Of a stretch of 64,000 nucleotides of DNA, positions 1,255-7,304 are shown piece by piece; the first letter of the stretch is position 1; each line of letters opens with the position of its first letter. A program made the translations under genes and the position numbers. Under the pieces are notes generated by a model, which saw only the letters and a program-made list of their open reading frames with translations, had not been told where the DNA came from and searched no databases. Location of the stretch: the sequence record KP869112; one strand, 5' to 3'. Source of the stretch: Escherichia coli O157 typing phage 14.

Positions 1255-1533
1255 ATGAGCTGTGAAAAATCTTTTTTCTTTATTATTTACGGTAAAGATA
1301 ACTGCCCACATTGTGTAAGAGCAAAAGAATTTGCAGTCAGTAAGGGTCTGCCTTTTGTATATAAGACACTTGGCGAGGGTTACACAAAAGAAGAGCTTAT
1401 TGAGAAGTGCAGTCCAATCGTACCCAGAACGTTGCCGCAGATCTTCTTAGAAAGTAATCTTGAAAGTGTCCATATAGGCGGTGCCGACGATTTCATCTCT
1501 TTTGTTAAGAATGGTTTTGGAGAGAAAAAGTGA
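1255..1533 (+). CDS. glutaredoxin-like redoxin (NrdH/NrdC-type hydrogen donor)
   Basis: 92 aa, CPHC active-site motif near N-terminus, thioredoxin-fold length, sits between nrdB and nrdD. Confidence 0.65.
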   Translation: MSCEKSFFFIIYGKDNCPHCVRAKEFAVSKGLPFVYKTLGEGYTKEELIEKCSPIVPRTLPQIFLESNLESVHIGGADDFISFVKNGFGEKK

Positions 1534-3653
1534 AAGTTGTAAAACGGGACGGTAGAGAAGAGGTCTATAACGGAATTAAGGTGATCAAGGCGGCAGAGTC
1601 CGCCTTACTTGAGTCTGGACATACTGAAGAAGAAGCTTACCGGATCGCCTGCGCGGTTAATGAAGTTGTTGCTAACAATCTACCAACCGACCAGTGCACG
1701 ATCTCTGTAAAAAATATCCATATCCTTGTTGAAGACGCTCTTATGGATATGGGTTTAAAATGTGCAGCCAGAGAATACATCCAGTATAGGCAGACAAGAG
1801 ATAATAACAGAGAGGCAGGTGGAAAACTGCTTGCAGATATTAGTGGCTTCTTGGATCGCACTTGTGATGAATTTACAAAAGAAAACGCAAATAAGCCTAC
1901 CAATCATGTACACACTCATCGTGACCTGCTTGCAGGCATCCTTAGCAAACACCTTGCATCAACACAGATCCTGCCAGACCGTGTCTCAGAAGAGCACAAT
2001 AGAGGCTTCATCCATGTGCATGATCTTGACTACTTGATCAGTCCGTTAACAAACTGTTGTTTGGTAAATTATCCAGATATGTTGGAAAACGGATTCAACA
2101 TTGGTAACGCCCATGTCAGTAAGCCTAAGTCAATAGGGGTTGCAACAACAATCCTTAGCCAAATCTCTAGTGCAGTAGCTAGTGCTCAATATGGGGGTCA
2201 GACTATGAGCCATATTGATCATTATCTGGCACAGTATGCTGAAGCGACCTATGAGAAGAACCTTAAATTTTGCCAGGAACATTGGTTGCCAGATGCTGAG
2301 ACTGTTGCAATGCAAATGACAGATAAAGACGTATTTGACAGCATGCAGACTTTGCTCTATCAAATCAATACGTTAACTTCTGTCAACGGGCAAACTCCAT
2401 TCATCACATTAAGTTTAGGACTGGATACCTCGGTCTTTGGTAGAATGATTACCAAAAATTACTTGAAAGTCCACAAAATGGGTCTTGGTGAAGAACGTAT
2501 CACACCTGTGTTCCCTAAAGTGCTATTCTTCCTAGAAGAGGGTGTCAACATGAACCCTGGAGATCCTAACTATGATTTGAAACGATTAGCTCTGGAATGC
2601 TCTGCAGAGCGGATTTATCCTGACTTTGTTTCTGTTCCACTAAATCGTAAAGTGACAGGCTCGACAGATGGTAAAGTAACGAGCATGGGTTGCCGGAGTT
2701 TTCTTAGCAAATATAATGACTTGGAAACAGGCGAGGAGAAATACCTTGGCAGATTTAACTTAGGCGTTGTTAGCCTTAACCTACCAATGATTGCGGCAAA
2801 AGCTAAAACGGAAGGTGTTGATTTCTTTGCAGTTCTTGACGAATACCTGGATCTTGCATACGAGGCTCACCTTGTAAGGGTTAACCGTCTAAAAGGAACA
2901 AAGGCAGGGCAGAACCCTATCATGTGGTGTGAAGGCGCTCTTGCTCGCCTGGATCCTGAAGAGAGTATTGATAAACTCTTCTATGACGGGTACGCTTCCA
3001 TCAGTATTGGGTATATTGGTGTGTATGAAACCTGTCAGATTTTGGGCAGGGAGGGTGACAAGGCTTTAGCTCTTGGAATACTTCAGCACATGAGAGATGC
3101 TTGTGAGCGATACAAGAAGGAAAGTAGACTAGCGTTTAGCTTGTACGGCACCCCTTCTGAGAGTCTATGCTATAAAGCTGCAACCTGTCTGGATCGTGAA
3201 TATCCCGAAGTGTTGAAGCACGAGCATGAATATCTCACCAACAGTTTCCATCAGCCAGTATGGATCAATAGCTCTCCTTTTGATAAGTGGGAGTATGAGG
3301 AAGGTTTTGCTATGATCTCCTCTGGTGGCAACATCGGATATGTAGAGACACCAAATCTGAAAAACAACTTAGATGCTTTAGAGGCTCTTGTTGACTTCGG
3401 GTATAAACACATTATGTATTTTGGTATTAACCAACCTGTGGATAAATGTCTCAAGTGTGGTTTCTCTGGTGAGTTTAGTGCAACAGCTAAAGGCTTTGTA
3501 TGCCCAGAGTGTGGAAACCATGAAGAGGGAACGATCAGTGTAATTCGACGTGTGTCTGGATACCTTTCCAGTCCTAACTCCCGTCCTTATAATAAAGGTA
3601 AGCAAGCGGAAGTTATCGAGCGAGTTAAGCACTATGGAAGTTGTAGTTGCTGA
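1530..3653 (+). CDS. nrdD: anaerobic ribonucleoside-triphosphate reductase (class III)
   Basis: 707 aa; N-terminal ATP-cone (VVKRDGREEVYNGIKV); C-terminal zinc ribbon CLKCG...CPECG; glycyl radical motif RRVSGYL near C-terminus; GTG start overlapping upstream stop. Confidence 0.9.
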   Translation: MKVVKRDGREEVYNGIKVIKAAESALLESGHTEEEAYRIACAVNEVVANNLPTDQCTISVKNIHILVEDALMDMGLKCAAREYIQYRQTRDNNREAGGKLLADISGFLDRTCDEFTKENANKPTNHVHTHRDLLAGILSKHLASTQILPDRVSEEHNRGFIHVHDLDYLISPLTNCCLVNYPDMLENGFNIGNAHVSKPKSIGVATTILSQISSAVASAQYGGQTMSHIDHYLAQYAEATYEKNLKFCQEHWLPDAETVAMQMTDKDVFDSMQTLLYQINTLTSVNGQTPFITLSLGLDTSVFGRMITKNYLKVHKMGLGEERITPVFPKVLFFLEEGVNMNPGDPNYDLKRLALECSAERIYPDFVSVPLNRKVTGSTDGKVTSMGCRSFLSKYNDLETGEEKYLGRFNLGVVSLNLPMIAAKAKTEGVDFFAVLDEYLDLAYEAHLVRVNRLKGTKAGQNPIMWCEGALARLDPEESIDKLFYDGYASISIGYIGVYETCQILGREGDKALALGILQHMRDACERYKKESRLAFSLYGTPSESLCYKAATCLDREYPEVLKHEHEYLTNSFHQPVWINSSPFDKWEYEEGFAMISSGGNIGYVETPNLKNNLDALEALVDFGYKHIMYFGINQPVDKCLKCGFSGEFSATAKGFVCPECGNHEEGTISVIRRVSGYLSSPNSRPYNKGKQAEVIERVKHYGSCSC

Positions 3654-3719
3654 TACTTGACAAAAGCCACAAGGATGTGGCACCCTTAGTTCAAAGACGA
3701 GAACTAAGAGGATTCAGCA

Positions 3720-4880
3720 GTGAGAAAACTTACAACCGAAGATTTTATAGAGGGGGCGAAAGCAGTTCATGGTGATAAATATGATTATTCCAAAGTCAAA
3801 TATGTGGGTGCACACACCAAGGTTGTAATTATATGCCCTGAGCATGGAGAATTTAAGAAAACTCTTGGAGATCACCTCCGTAAAAAACAGGGTTGCCCAA
3901 AATGTCAGATTGAAGCAGAAAGAGCGGCTTCTGCTGAAAAATTTAAAGCGGAGGCCGAGGCTAAGTATAATTATAAATATGATTACTCTAAGGTAGAGTA
4001 TGTAAATGCTAAAACTAAAGTTGTGATTGTTTGTCCTGTTCACGGCGAGTTTGAGCAAAAGCCTTATAACCATCTCCGCGAGGGGGGTTGCCGTAAGTGT
4101 GGAGGGACTGAGAGAAAGACTACTGAAGAGTGGATCGCTGAGGCAAAAGCGCTTCATGGCGATAAGTATGATTACTCTCTTGTAAATTATAAAACCTGTA
4201 ATGATAAAGTGGAGATAATCTGTAATACATGTGGTGCTCACTTCCCACAAAGACCTCATGACCATGCACCAAGTGGAAACGGTTGCCCCGAGTGCGGGAA
4301 GAAGAAGGTGGCCGAGGTTAGTAGGAAGACGCAGAGAAAGAAAGCATCTGAGGTAGCTAAAAGGTTTGAGGCAAGAGCCAGAGCTATCCATAAAGATAAA
4401 TACGATTATTCCAGGGTGGAATATGTTAATAGGGAGACAGAGGTCACTATCATCTGTCCGATTCACGGGGAGTTCACACAAAAACCGTTTGTCCACATCA
4501 ACCAAAAAGCTGGCTGTCAAAAATGTGCTAAAGTCGGCTTCTTATCTCATGAACATGGTAGCCTTTATATCATGGTTGACGATCTGGAAGTACCAACTAT
4601 GATGAAAATTGGTGTGAGTGTCCGGGTAGATGAACGAAGAAAAGATGTGTTAAAAAGAGCTAAAAAAGCTGGTGCTAGATTCTCTGATCTACATGTTATA
4701 AAAACTTGGGAAGGAACAACAGACGACATGCAAACTTTAGAAAAAGCTATGCACCAAGCCTTGAGCCAATACAAAATCAACTTCACAGAGAAGTTTGATG
4801 GCTGTCGAGAGTTCTTCTACTACAGACCGGAGGTATTCGAGCTAGTAGAAGAACATTTGAAGAAATTTGCTAATAAATAA
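3720..4880 (+). CDS. homing-endonuclease-like protein: four tandem zinc-ribbon repeats plus C-terminal T5orf172/GIY-YIG-like domain
   Basis: Four ~60 aa repeats KYDYSxVxY...IICPxHGEFxQxPxxH...GCxxC; C-terminus SLYIMVDD...KIGVS...GCREFFY resembles T5orf172; inserted between nrdD and nrdG; GTG start with AAGAGGA RBS. Confidence 0.6.
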   Translation: MRKLTTEDFIEGAKAVHGDKYDYSKVKYVGAHTKVVIICPEHGEFKKTLGDHLRKKQGCPKCQIEAERAASAEKFKAEAEAKYNYKYDYSKVEYVNAKTKVVIVCPVHGEFEQKPYNHLREGGCRKCGGTERKTTEEWIAEAKALHGDKYDYSLVNYKTCNDKVEIICNTCGAHFPQRPHDHAPSGNGCPECGKKKVAEVSRKTQRKKASEVAKRFEARARAIHKDKYDYSRVEYVNRETEVTIICPIHGEFTQKPFVHINQKAGCQKCAKVGFLSHEHGSLYIMVDDLEVPTMMKIGVSVRVDERRKDVLKRAKKAGARFSDLHVIKTWEGTTDDMQTLEKAMHQALSQYKINFTEKFDGCREFFYYRPEVFELVEEHLKKFANK

Positions 4881-4941
4881 TAACACACAAAGGGCCAGCT
4901 TTATTCTAGCCCTTCAGTCCGTTGTAAATTAAGGAGTTGTT

Positions 4942-5067
4942 ATGTCATCTGGTGGCTTTAAAGTAAAAATTTGTAAACACTGCGGTTGTAAGTGCAACCT
5001 TCGTTGGTGCAAGTCACTAGACGATTTTATTTGGCATTGCCCTAAATGTGATGCGGAGTATCTATGA
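4942..5067 (+). CDS. small zinc-ribbon protein (41 aa)
   Basis: AAGGAG RBS 7 nt before ATG; CxxC...CxxC; stop overlaps nrdG start (ATGA). Confidence 0.4.
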   Translation: MSSGGFKVKICKHCGCKCNLRWCKSLDDFIWHCPKCDAEYL

Positions 5068-5537
5068 ACATTGTCGGATACACAGAAATATCTTACACCG
5101 AAGGGCCAGGTATTAGAACTGCCTTGTGGGTATCTGGGTGCCCACACGCTTGCCCTGGTTGCTTTAATCAGGCATTTTGGTCAAAAGATAAGGGGAGGGA
5201 GTTCACTGAAGAAGATTTGCAAAAAATCTTGTCAGATTTAGATAACCCGTCTGTGTGCGGTATCTCTCTGCTGGGTGGAGAACCCTTAGCCTACTATAAT
5301 GAGCCAGATATTATTAGCCTGATGGAGAAAATTAAGGAAAAATTTGGTGACAAGAAAACTATTCTTGTATATACTGGGTTCACATTTGATCATATCTCTA
5401 GTGATGTTCTTAAACTGGCTGATATCATCATTGACGGTAAGTATGTAAAAGATTTACCAACCAAGAAACCGTTCCGAGGTAGCGATAACCAAAGAATGTT
5501 TAAAAAAGTAGCAGGCGGTTGGGTTCAGGTAGACTAG
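5064..5537 (+). CDS. nrdG: anaerobic ribonucleotide reductase activating protein (radical SAM)
   Basis: 157 aa; CPHACPGC cluster (CxxxCxxC) near N-terminus; adjacent to nrdD. Confidence 0.85.
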   Translation: MNIVGYTEISYTEGPGIRTALWVSGCPHACPGCFNQAFWSKDKGREFTEEDLQKILSDLDNPSVCGISLLGGEPLAYYNEPDIISLMEKIKEKFGDKKTILVYTGFTFDHISSDVLKLADIIIDGKYVKDLPTKKPFRGSDNQRMFKKVAGGWVQVD

Positions 5538-5540
5538 TTG

Positions 5541-5570
5541 TTGACAAAGCTTTGTTTAGATAGGTATAAT
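5541..5570 (+). promoter_or_regulatory. sigma70-like promoter (TTGACA, 18 nt spacer, TATAAT)
   Basis: Perfect -35 and -10 hexamers upstream of the 5602 and 5712 genes. Confidence 0.5.
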
Positions 5571-5601
5571 TATCGTAAAATGAAAGCAGAGGAGGTGCCA
5601 A

Positions 5602-5715
5602 ATGGCTAAAAAAGCCTTGAAGAAGGCGTACAAAAAAGAGATTGCGCTTGAGCTTAAGAAAAAACACAAGCGTGAAAAGAAATATCATGAGGATGAAGAG
5701 GGGGTGCAACAGTGA
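5602..5715 (+). CDS. small highly basic protein (37 aa)
   Basis: GAGGAGG RBS before ATG; lysine-rich MAKKALKKAYKK...; below ORF-track size cutoff. Confidence 0.4.
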   Translation: MAKKALKKAYKKEIALELKKKHKREKKYHEDEEGVQQ

Positions 5716-6062
5716 CACAAGAACGTATCGATTTGGCTAATAAGTTTGTAGATCTCATTTTGCCACGGTTAGTTACTCAACATGCAGACGCTATTTCTAC
5801 TAATCTTGATGGCTTACGCCTAATGCTGAATCGCACAGATGATCCTCGTATTCGAGCTGATTTAGAAGCCTCTGCCAACAAACTGGAAAAGTTCTTGCAA
5901 GTAGATACGCAAGAAGCCTTACACAAGATTATGGTGGAAGGTTTCTCTAAAGAATTTACCATTAAAGAGCTTAAGGAGCTGATCCACCAAGAAGAGATGA
6001 ATATCCGAGTTCAGGCTGTTGCAAGCAGCATGGAAGCGGCTATTGAAAAACTGTTGCAGTAA
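5712..6062 (+). CDS. hypothetical protein
   Basis: ORF-track ORF, GTG start overlapping upstream stop; no recognisable motif. Confidence 0.45.
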   Translation: MTQERIDLANKFVDLILPRLVTQHADAISTNLDGLRLMLNRTDDPRIRADLEASANKLEKFLQVDTQEALHKIMVEGFSKEFTIKELKELIHQEEMNIRVQAVASSMEAAIEKLLQ

Positions 6063-6100
6063 AAGTACTTGGCACATCTCAATCTGAAAGGAGTCCCAAC

Positions 6101-6889
6101 ATGGGTCGAGCTAAAGAAACAAAACGCATGCGTGATGAAGCTAGAGAGGCTCGCAAATCTGATCGCCTGCGTAAGGCTGCTGAGAAATTTGCTGACGAAC
6201 GAGAGCACACCGCTCCAGCTCTCCGACCAATGAATAAAAAGCAGCAAAAGTATCTTGATTATCTAGGGTCACGTAAGATTATTATTGTAAACGGTGTGTT
6301 TGGATCCGGTAAGACATTCATGGCATCTGCATATGCAGGTGATCTTCTGCGTAAGAATGAGATTGATAAGATCATTGTTGCACGTCCTTATGTACAGACC
6401 GGAAAATCAAGCGGATACAAACCGGGAACGTCAATGCAGAAGCTTTGGCCTTACCTTCGTAGTATGATGGACACTATTTGTCGTCGTGTTGGCAAAGGTG
6501 CTTTTGCCGCAATGCTGGGAGATGGTCAGAACAGCCGTATCGAGATTTGTGAAGTTGAAAGCATTCGTGGTCGTAGTTTCGATGAGCGATGCTTTGTCCT
6601 GATTGACGAGGCACAGCAAACTAACCCTGAAGAAATGTTGTCAATTATTACAAGGATCTCTGATCAGGCCACCCTTGTAATTATGGGTGATAATAGTCAA
6701 CGTGACATCCCTGGTAAATCTGGCCTTGCATGGGTGACGGATTTCTTTACTCGTCATCCAGATCCTGAGGTTGGAATGATCAGCTTTGATAGTCCAGACG
6801 ATGTCGTTCGTTCCGGGTTGGGCCGTCAGATTGCTCTCAATCTTATAGAGGATCGTGCAAATCATATTTGGACCCCTGTTTCCGAGTAA
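6101..6889 (+). CDS. phoH: PhoH-like ATPase
   Basis: Walker A GVFGSGKT, Walker B VLIDEAQ, GDNSQRD motif; RBS AAAGGAG. Confidence 0.8.
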   Translation: MGRAKETKRMRDEAREARKSDRLRKAAEKFADEREHTAPALRPMNKKQQKYLDYLGSRKIIIVNGVFGSGKTFMASAYAGDLLRKNEIDKIIVARPYVQTGKSSGYKPGTSMQKLWPYLRSMMDTICRRVGKGAFAAMLGDGQNSRIEICEVESIRGRSFDERCFVLIDEAQQTNPEEMLSIITRISDQATLVIMGDNSQRDIPGKSGLAWVTDFFTRHPDPEVGMISFDSPDDVVRSGLGRQIALNLIEDRANHIWTPVSE

Positions 6890-6894
6890 TACAG

Positions 6895-6920
6895 AAGGGT
6901 GGTTATTCCACCCTTAAATA
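6895..6920 (+). terminator. stable hairpin AAGGGTGG-TTAT-CCACCCTT after phoH (weak terminator, no strong U tract)
   Basis: 8 bp inverted repeat seen immediately after stop. Confidence 0.3.
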
Positions 6921-6933
6921 TCTAAAACAGTTG

Positions 6934-6962
6934 TTGACAAACAGGTAAGCTTTAGATATTAT
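6934..6962 (+). promoter_or_regulatory. sigma70-like promoter (TTGACA, 17 nt, TATTAT)
   Basis: Hexamers at 6934-6939 and 6957-6962 upstream of gene at 6993. Confidence 0.45.
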
Positions 6963-6992
6963 TATCGGACAAGACAAGTAGAAGGAGATAGT

Positions 6993-7304
6993 ATGGCTAC
7001 AATACAAGAAAGACTGAATAAAATATACTGCCTGTTTGTCTATAAAGGCGAGACAATTTTGGCAAATAAAGGATACAAGAATGTGTGGATCAAGGACAGT
7101 GGTGGTAATATAATCAACTTAGCGTTGCTACGTGAGCGCCGACACAGATTCTTTATCGAGTCTCGGATTATTGAAAGCAGCACCTGCTACAGAACCGGCG
7201 ATAAAGTAATTGTTGACAATGATACGTGGTATGTGGTAGACTGGCAATCATTGAGCTGTGATGCTTCTGACAATCGTAAGTATTCCCTAGTGATTGCTAA
7301 ATAA
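6993..7304 (+). CDS. hypothetical protein
   Basis: RBS GAAGGAG before ATG; no recognisable motif. Confidence 0.5.
   Translation: MATIQERLNKIYCLFVYKGETILANKGYKNVWIKDSGGNIINLALLRERRHRFFIESRIIESSTCYRTGDKVIVDNDTWYVVDWQSLSCDASDNRKYSLVIAK

Follow-up and report, generated by a model that had tools for sequence, protein, structure and literature searches.

The window analyzed here is the whole 64,000-nucleotide stretch of DNA from Escherichia coli O157 typing phage 14 (KP869112), an rV5-like coliphage (Vequintavirus). All features described below are given on the plus strand. An intact nrdD gene, encoding the anaerobic ribonucleotide reductase, occupies positions 1530..3653 (Pfam NRDD, 6.3e-161, together with the Gly_radical and ATP-cone domains), and nrdG, encoding the activating radical-SAM enzyme, is found at 5064..5537 (Pfam Fer4_12, 9.4e-43). 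Between the 5' flank formed by nrdD and the 3' flank formed by nrdG there is an open reading frame (ORF) of 386 amino acids with a GTG start codon at 3720..4880, exactly where a preliminary description of this DNA had placed it inside the nrdD-nrdG module. The same description stated that the ORF parts nrdD from nrdG, which is correct as far as its position is concerned, but the ORF is not in direct contact with nrdG: a small cysteine-rich ORF of 41 amino acids (4942..5067) intervenes and overlaps the nrdG start. A PHROGs search assigned the 386-aa protein to phrog_681, annotated as an endonuclease (1e-80), and NCBIfam gave no match above cut-offs. Within the 64-kb window neither paralogs of the protein nor tRNA genes were found.

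The C-terminal part of the protein (4527..4877) carries a nuclease domain of the GIY-YIG superfamily, which is recognized by two Pfam models: MUG113 (3.4e-7, 31.2 bits against a cut-off of 22.3, aa 296-384) and T5orf172 (8.5e-6, 26.6 bits against a cut-off of 20, aa 282-372). The domain is modeled confidently as a GIY-YIG fold with a beta-beta-alpha-beta-alpha core. The earlier view of the gene as homing-endonuclease-like, with a T5orf172/GIY-YIG-like C-terminus, is thus borne out by an HMM domain search that returns nuclease-domain matches above cut-offs and by the modeled fold; we refer to it below as the candidate homing endonuclease gene (HEG). The key residues of the domain are Y283, K296-I-G298, R306, E341, H345 and E364. 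Across diverse T5orf172 homologs K296, G298, E341, G361, E364 and F366 are invariant, with E364 located within a G-x-x-E-F-F motif, and R306 is invariant among close homologs; the K-I-G triplet (K296-G298) is found in place of Y-I-G. In the modeled fold R306 and E364 sit where the catalytic arginine of helix 1 and the catalytic glutamate of GIY-YIG nucleases are expected, so that by position they would match the GIY-YIG catalytic pair, with E364 as the putative counterpart of I-TevI E75 and Odn E180. Sequence searches of the PDB with the complete protein and with a nuclease-domain profile yielded chance-level matches only. Odn, a T5orf172 nuclease, cuts DNA in vitro and is inactivated by the substitution E180A (PMC8263062). 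DNA cleavage by the protein described here, the place of its target and present-day activity are inferences.

The array of zinc fingers preceding the nuclease domain accounts for 70% of the protein, which corrects the N-terminal three quarters given previously. As had been noted, it consists of four tandem units of ~60 amino acids (aa 3-62, 69-127, 132-192 and 210-269), each with a KYDYS motif (at aa 20, 86, 149 and 227). The repeats share 18 invariant columns and are 40-54% identical to each other in protein and 47-62% in DNA; their pairwise local alignment scores range from 110 to 187, compared to 23.5 +/- 5.1 for shuffled sequences. Scores of this size cannot be explained by chance, and the duplications that gave rise to the repeats are ancient. 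Recent tandem duplication as their origin is ruled out because the nucleotide identity between repeats is so low. Pfam recognizes DUF723 (2.4e-15, 56.6 bits against a gathering cut-off of 20.9) and DUF4379, named "probable treble clef zinc finger" (8.5e-12, 45.5 bits against a cut-off of 24.5). Four zinc ligands are present in every one of the four modules (CxxH or CxxC followed by CxxC), and all 16 are intact. Fingers 1 (3726..3905; C39, H42, C59, C62; DUF723-like), 2 (3924..4100; C105, H108, C124, C127) and 4 (4347..4526; C246, H249, C266, C269) belong to a type that we designate A (KYDYS...CPxHG...CxxC), with the ligand pattern C-P-x-H-G...C-x-x-C. Finger 3 (4113..4295; C168, C171, C189, C192) is of type B (KYDYS...CNTCG.HF...CPxC), in which KYDYS is combined with CxxC...CxxC; it shows the variant pattern C-N-T-C-G...C-P-E-C and is the finger that matches DUF4379. 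The CPxHG pattern ascribed earlier to all four repeats is therefore restricted to fingers 1, 2 and 4.

In a full-length AF2 model all four finger modules, finger 1 included, are confident (pLDDT ~85-91). A modeled finger comprises an N-terminal helix, a beta-hairpin bearing the first ligand pair, and a helix starting at the second pair; the second pairs C59/C62, C189/C192 and C266/C269 appear to be placed at the helix start. With the first ligand pair on a knuckle formed by the beta-hairpin and the second where a helix begins, the fingers probably adopt a treble-clef arrangement. The Pfam entry for DUF4379 likewise describes a probable treble clef, and the label "zinc ribbon" used in the preliminary description is probably wrong for this fold. 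A Foldseek search of the PDB with the full-length model was uninformative (TM ~0.12), which is not surprising for a flexible model of several domains whose nuclease part came out poorly in this run, and the same search found no solved relative of the fingers. CapR-type fingers bind DNA in a cysteine-dependent manner, as demonstrated by EMSA and Cys mutants (PMC8096241). The CapR profile is related to the fingers described here, not identical to them, and by this analogy these fingers would be expected to bind DNA as well.

We examined the variability of 729 unique A-type fingers. Their scaffold is nearly invariant (F9, I10, H17, Y21-D-Y-S24, Y28, I37, C39, H42, G43, F45, Q47, H52, C59 and C62), and the zinc ligands C, H, C, C are 100% conserved. 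Hypervariable positions are 29-32, 36, 46, 48, 50-51 and 54-57. Two database entries represent the same gene as the HEG of this phage, both by automated annotation only: gp117 of phage SophiaRose (QXN68891.1, "putative GIY-YIG nuclease family protein"), which is encoded at the same site and differs by 4 amino acids, and P0001, listed at NCBI as "GIY-YIG nuclease family protein [Escherichia coli]", with 97% protein identity. The differences with respect to P0001 and SophiaRose include residues 116, 117, 120 and 121 in finger 2, which correspond to finger positions 50, 51, 54 and 55, and residue 262 in finger 4, which corresponds to position 55. Several of the few differences among these near-identical alleles are thus located at hypervariable positions, and no ligand is affected. 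Judged from the sequences, their placement is compatible with selection on putative DNA-contacting residues, but is not proof of it. Four of the five substitutions that distinguish the HEG from its SophiaRose counterpart are nonsynonymous, which could be due to relaxed constraint instead of diversifying selection.

The nrdD-nrdG region matches 122 phage records, mostly at 95-99% identity, and SophiaRose alone covers the full query. Insert-free relatives, whose existence the preliminary description had left to be checked, turned out to be the majority: in ~98 of the 122 (~80%), as established by sequence for YN3 and FFH2 and by match span for most other records, nrdD is followed by a small ORF of 38 amino acids and then by nrdG. 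YN3, FFH2 and Murica are examples of such empty alleles, and the gene is accordingly far from universal at this position. Homology to YN3 and FFH2 stops at 3682 and restarts at 4981 inside the small ORF, and these boundaries (3682/3683 on the left and 4980/4981 on the right) define a cassette of 1298 bp (3683..4980) that stands in place of 64 bp of the empty allele. The whole cassette was found only in SophiaRose. It contains the HEG, flanking hairpins, and a replacement ribosome-binding site (RBS) and 5' end of the small ORF.

The last sequence in common with empty alleles is a hairpin just 3' of the nrdD stop codon (3666..3681, GCCACA-AGGA-TGTGGC). The cassette itself begins with a second hairpin (3683..3711), the 3' arm of which lies over the Shine-Dalgarno sequence AAGAGGA of the HEG (fold z = -4.2 for 3650-3740). 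This hairpin is kept in SophiaRose and ECML-10, is weaker in JEP1 and is absent in L012, a 128-kb metagenomic contig, and no compensatory changes (covariation) were seen in it across the compared alleles. Translational control of the HEG by this hairpin is possible, although it is a weak observation. A third hairpin (4888..4916) is located 3' of the HEG stop codon and appears terminator-like on the minus strand in a scan. At the right end of the cassette, the RBS and the first ~13 codons of the small ORF (to 4980) are cassette-derived and recoded; the small ORF has 3 extra codons compared to other vequintaviruses and starts MSSGGFKVKICKHCGCKC... instead of MSTGIYKICKCGCRC...

Comparison with SophiaRose provides evidence of mobility. 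The cassette region (3646-4997) shows 5 differences in 1352 bp (~0.4%, or 99.6% identity), in contrast to ~2.5-3% divergence in the flanks. SophiaRose differs further in its upstream nrdD haplotype, which is the variant one described below, and in an insertion that splits nrdD; therefore, the cassette resides in two different backgrounds. Additional evidence comes from L012, whose nrdD is just 72% identical to that of this phage. In the same gap L012 encodes a 404-aa HEG homolog with the finger order A-A-C-A and a nuclease domain that is 71% identical, and positions 4396-5072 align with the contig without interruption, from finger 4 across the nuclease domain and the intergenic stretch to a point inside the small ORF, which in L012 has the same unusual "...GFKVKVCKDCGCEC..." form as in this phage. 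To judge from these alignments, the cassette evidently came into vequintaviruses from a more distant lineage along with flanking sequence. Because the cassette is more similar than its flanks and its 3' end appears to derive from a distant lineage, these comparisons support recent lateral transfer with co-conversion, as homing predicts. Recombination without involvement of the nuclease could likewise spread a cassette, and T5orf172 genes with a DUF723 array are not known from experiment to home. We also identified degraded copies: a frameshifted allele of 327 amino acids (P0002), in which 304 of the first 316 residues match the HEG protein before truncation at aa 316, and split copies in PMBT16 (two ORFs) and L015. 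Such copies fit the cycle of invasion and decay that is usual for HEGs.

The nrdD-nrdG gap is a hotspot for T5orf172 HEGs: in 24 of the ~122 relatives it is occupied by a T5orf172 gene. Among these, sequence comparison distinguished at least six intact alleles that have the nuclease domain in common and differ by shuffling of their finger arrays, in which a third finger type, C (HxEW...CRCKxC.HEW...GHGCPxC), is found in addition to A and B. The finger order is A-A-B-A in this phage and SophiaRose, A-A-B in phiWec189, A-C-C-C in ECML-10, A-A-C in the I29 group, B-C-A in JEP1 and A-B-C-A in Mangalyan. Many fingers resemble a finger from a different position of another allele more than they resemble the adjacent fingers of the same array. 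For example, Mangalyan fingers 3-4 correspond to JEP1 fingers 2-3 at 92-95% identity, and the B finger is located at position 1, 2 or 3 depending on the allele; the nearest relatives of finger 3 of this phage are JEP1 finger 1, phiWec189 finger 3 and Mangalyan finger 2. The nuclease domain of the HEG is only 54-63% identical to its counterparts in the remaining alleles of this site. A version of the same nuclease with a single finger is encoded by the lambdoid phages mEp021 and mEp013 (~70% nucleotide identity), and the gap of L012 contains a second HEG in which a DUF723 finger is joined to an HNH_3 nuclease. The allelic series at nrdD-nrdG is a modestly interesting by-product of this analysis.

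All alleles retain the nrdD stop codon and the adjacent hairpin and replace a spacer of ~25 bp, TATTATTGACACACAGTGAGCT, upstream of the small-ORF RBS; the allele of this phage and SophiaRose has a recoded small-ORF start as well. On the simplest reading of these sequences, the target would overlap the spacer and the start of the small ORF. A polymorphic patch is present at the 3' end of nrdD, in the Zn-ribbon region just before the glycyl-radical motif (3476..3551), where this phage and SophiaRose show 25 differences in 76 bp. This phage has the common haplotype, GFVCPECGNHEEGT, and the variant is GFCCPACGCHDEQY; the amino acids of the C-terminal Zn ribbon differ between the two. Of the 24 HEG-bearing relatives, 21 have the variant haplotype, as do 15 of the ~98 HEG-less ones, an association (Fisher p = 3e-11) that is confounded by shared ancestry. 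The patch is ruled out as the target of this allele because the HEG co-occurs with the common haplotype in this phage and because Murica combines the variant with an empty gap. Possibly, the patch is a scar left by co-conversion, or else an escape variant connected with other alleles.

We consider it probable, at roughly 80%, that the ORF is a free-standing HEG of the T5orf172 branch of GIY-YIG nucleases and that it reached the Vequintavirus nrdD-nrdG site as part of an invading 1.3-kb cassette. The four treble-clef-like fingers (A-A-B-A), arranged as "beads on a string", would bind a long asymmetric site in cassette-free genomes, in or near the spacer that separates the nrdD hairpin from the small ORF. 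Connected to them through a short linker, the C-terminal GIY-YIG-type domain would then cut nearby, with R306 and E364 as the putative catalytic Arg/Glu pair. During mixed infection, repair of the cleaved genome would use the cassette-bearing genome as a template, whereby the cassette and short flanking tracts are copied. The carrier genome would be immune to cleavage, because it has another sequence in place of the ~25-bp spacer and a recoded small-ORF start.

The same observations were weighed against three other explanations. The gene could have arrived by homing and now be an inactive relic, a decaying passenger that no longer cuts and that is kept since precise deletion is rare. The degraded copies in P0002, PMBT16 and L015 and the predominance of nonsynonymous substitutions relative to SophiaRose (4 of 5) would agree with this scenario. 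We regard it as unlikely, given that the ORF is full length with all 16 zinc ligands and Y283, K296, G298, R306, E341 and E364 intact, that the near-identity of the cassette in two backgrounds argues for recent spread, and that several of the allele differences affect hypervariable positions (50, 51, 54 and 55) and not the scaffold. According to another explanation, the protein is a domesticated nuclease or DNA binder that cuts competitors or satellites, excludes the markers of co-infecting phages, or represses transcription in the manner of CapR and I-TevI. There are precedents for such a change of function: Odn is a T5orf172 nuclease turned on a satellite (PMC8263062), CapR is a finger domain turned repressor (PMC8096241), and Barth et al. 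consider homing and domestication inseparable by bioinformatics (PMC10448857). Competition between phages would also agree with the presence of such varied finger arrays at a single locus. Nevertheless, the gene is found patchily, in ~20% of relatives, and this allele in 1 of the 122 records, whereas one would expect a fixed, useful function to be distributed more widely. Moreover, the protein has the position and anatomy of a classic free-standing HEG and no satellite-derived DNA-binding domain, which makes domestication quite improbable.

The location beside nrdD and nrdG also raises the possibility of an accessory zinc-binding part of the anaerobic ribonucleotide reductase system. Position is all that speaks for it, together with the annotation of the neighboring small ORF as "anaerobic NTP reductase protein" in SophiaRose. 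Since insert-free alleles exist, such a role is effectively refuted: the gene is absent from ~80% of close relatives with intact nrdD and nrdG. The same domains are also joined to other nucleases and found in unrelated contexts, including lambdoid phages, and the fold is that of a nuclease.

Returning to the homing endonuclease, the finger arrays permit a further and rather doubtful reading, in which the fingers act as modular recognition units with a rigid scaffold of ~58 amino acids and about a dozen hypervariable positions, and the allelic series, including the distant A-A-C-A allele, records an arms race. HEGs would retarget by swapping or mutating fingers, and genomes would escape through a recoded small-ORF start and the variant nrdD haplotype. 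If this were true, the locus would offer naturally occurring training data from which to derive a finger-to-DNA code and, possibly, to build programmable nucleases.

T4 Seg proteins and I-TevI share with the HEG a GIY-YIG nuclease, a modular tethered DNA-binding region and a position among nucleotide-metabolism genes (free-standing or in an intron), and they also resemble it in the co-conversion of flanks and in having a hairpin over the RBS that may control translation. They differ in that their nuclease domain is N-terminal, whereas it is C-terminal in the HEG, which belongs to the T5orf172 subfamily with K-I-G for Y-I-G and has a zinc-finger array as opposed to NUMOD/HTH modules. Odn (ICP1 Gp88; PMC8263062), the only T5orf172 member with in vitro cleavage data that we found in the literature, similarly has a C-terminal T5orf172 nuclease, with a catalytic glutamate of which E364 is the putative counterpart. 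Unlike the HEG, it is origin-directed, owes its DNA-binding domain (RepA_N) to a satellite and serves defence rather than homing.

The closest described systems are the HEGs reported by Barth, Dunham and Seed in 2023 (ICP1 gp174 and gp165, and phage Helene; PMC10448857), which have the same N-terminal tandem fingers and C-terminal T5orf172 domain. They are also free-standing beside RNR genes, show signs of shuffling and deletion of fingers by recombination, and are found at boundaries of genetic exchange. In that work, fingers of the types CapR, DUF723 or DUF4379 (the last also spelled "DUF4397" in the text) are present in 200 of 229 T5orf172 HEGs, often in several copies and as "beads on a string", the finger repeats recombine, and RNR genes are found in 33% of T5orf172 HEG neighborhoods (PMC10448857). 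ICP1 is a phage of Vibrio, in contrast to the E. coli Vequintavirus studied here, and the likeness of our fingers to those of the described HEGs was judged by their DUF723/DUF4379 matches. The nrdD-nrdG locus and its allelic series are absent from the text of PMC10448857, where "rV5", "Vequintavir" and "nrdD" each occur 0 times. Database searches with the HEG protein matched at least 8000 proteins with DUF723/DUF4379-type arrays. The best 120 of these matches, a ranking that favors long arrays, have 3-8 fingers, and the nucleases attached to these are of at least three kinds (Vsr/PD-(D/E)xK-like, canonical GIY-YIG and T5orf172), with 4-8 fingers in those bearing T5orf172. The preliminary description regarded a four-fold array as unusual, which does not hold: arrays of 3-8 fingers are common in the database, and the repeats have been described (PMC10448857).

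The HEG is an ordinary representative of its class, which was described in 2023, and sequence comparison offers good evidence of its recent mobility. As a single gene it matters little, being one more T5orf172 HEG beside RNR genes, which is a documented pattern. The useful part is the site, a single locus in well-sampled coliphages with many empty alleles, at least six intact alleles and linked flanking polymorphisms. With E. coli as a host and many isolates at hand, it constitutes a tractable system for asking whether homing by array-bearing T5orf172 HEGs takes place, what position their cleavage sites have with respect to the insertion site, and how the number and order of fingers set target specificity.

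The nrdD-nrdG interval contains a small Cys-rich ORF in the vequintavirus loci examined, at window positions 4942-5067 in this phage, where it encodes 41 aa with seven Cys, as against 38 aa in other vequintaviruses. It overlaps the start of nrdG (ATGA), is annotated in SophiaRose as 'anaerobic NTP reductase protein', and has a recoded 5' end in the cassette-bearing genomes. At the other end of the cassette, the Shine-Dalgarno sequence of the homing endonuclease gene (HEG) is overlapped by the 3' arm of a hairpin at 3683-3711 (CCUUAGUUC...GAACUAAG.GG). This hairpin is kept in SophiaRose and ECML-10, is weaker in JEP1 and is absent in the metagenomic contig L012, and compensatory changes were not seen. 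Its position recalls the translational control of T4 HEGs.

Upstream, the 3' end of nrdD carries a patch with two haplotypes over the C-terminal Zn ribbon (3476-3551). The haplotypes, GFVCPECGNHEEGT and GFCCPACGCHDEQY, differ at 25 of 76 nt, and the variant form encodes two additional Cys. This form is over-represented among genomes whose downstream gap holds an HEG (21/24 versus 15/~98 genomes), and Murica combines it with an empty gap. About 19 'Campylobacter phage' records (MG0656xx, stated host Campylobacter jejuni) share 97-98% identity with rV5-like coliphages in the nrdD-nrdG region; they seem to be vequintavirus sequences that were mislabelled or arose from contamination.

Many relatives have a split nrdD; the nrdD of the window (1530-3653) is intact and free of any such insertion. 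The insertions lie at 2364-3247 in record L005, 2364-~3120 in L003, 650-2504 in L007, 614-1463 in L009 and 2364-2673 in SophiaRose (L001). Those of FFH2, ECML-10, Mangalyan and JEP1, the last with two insertions in its nrdD, harbor HNH homing endonucleases, and that of SophiaRose (~300 bp) has no annotated ORF. SophiaRose also encodes a further 'GIY-YIG nuclease family protein' directly downstream of phoH (L001, 7167 onward), a position matched in the window by a short intergenic region only (~6889-6993), and this nearby locus is apparently another polymorphic HEG site, the second in this region. ARAGORN detected neither tRNA nor tmRNA genes across the entire window (1-64000).

In L012, a distant relative, the nrdD-nrdG gap contains a second HEG (5504-6190), in which a DUF723 finger is joined to an HNH_3 nuclease; the same type of finger is thus combined with nucleases of different families at a single site. 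A ~178-aa version, consisting of one type-C finger and the same nuclease domain as the HEG of the window, is carried by the lambdoid phages mEp021 (L008, 2399-2872) and mEp013 (P0125) and by an E. coli genome record (P0131) that may represent a prophage. Because this one-finger version is about 70% identical at the nucleotide level and about 60% at the protein level, its sequence indicates exchange across unrelated phage groups.
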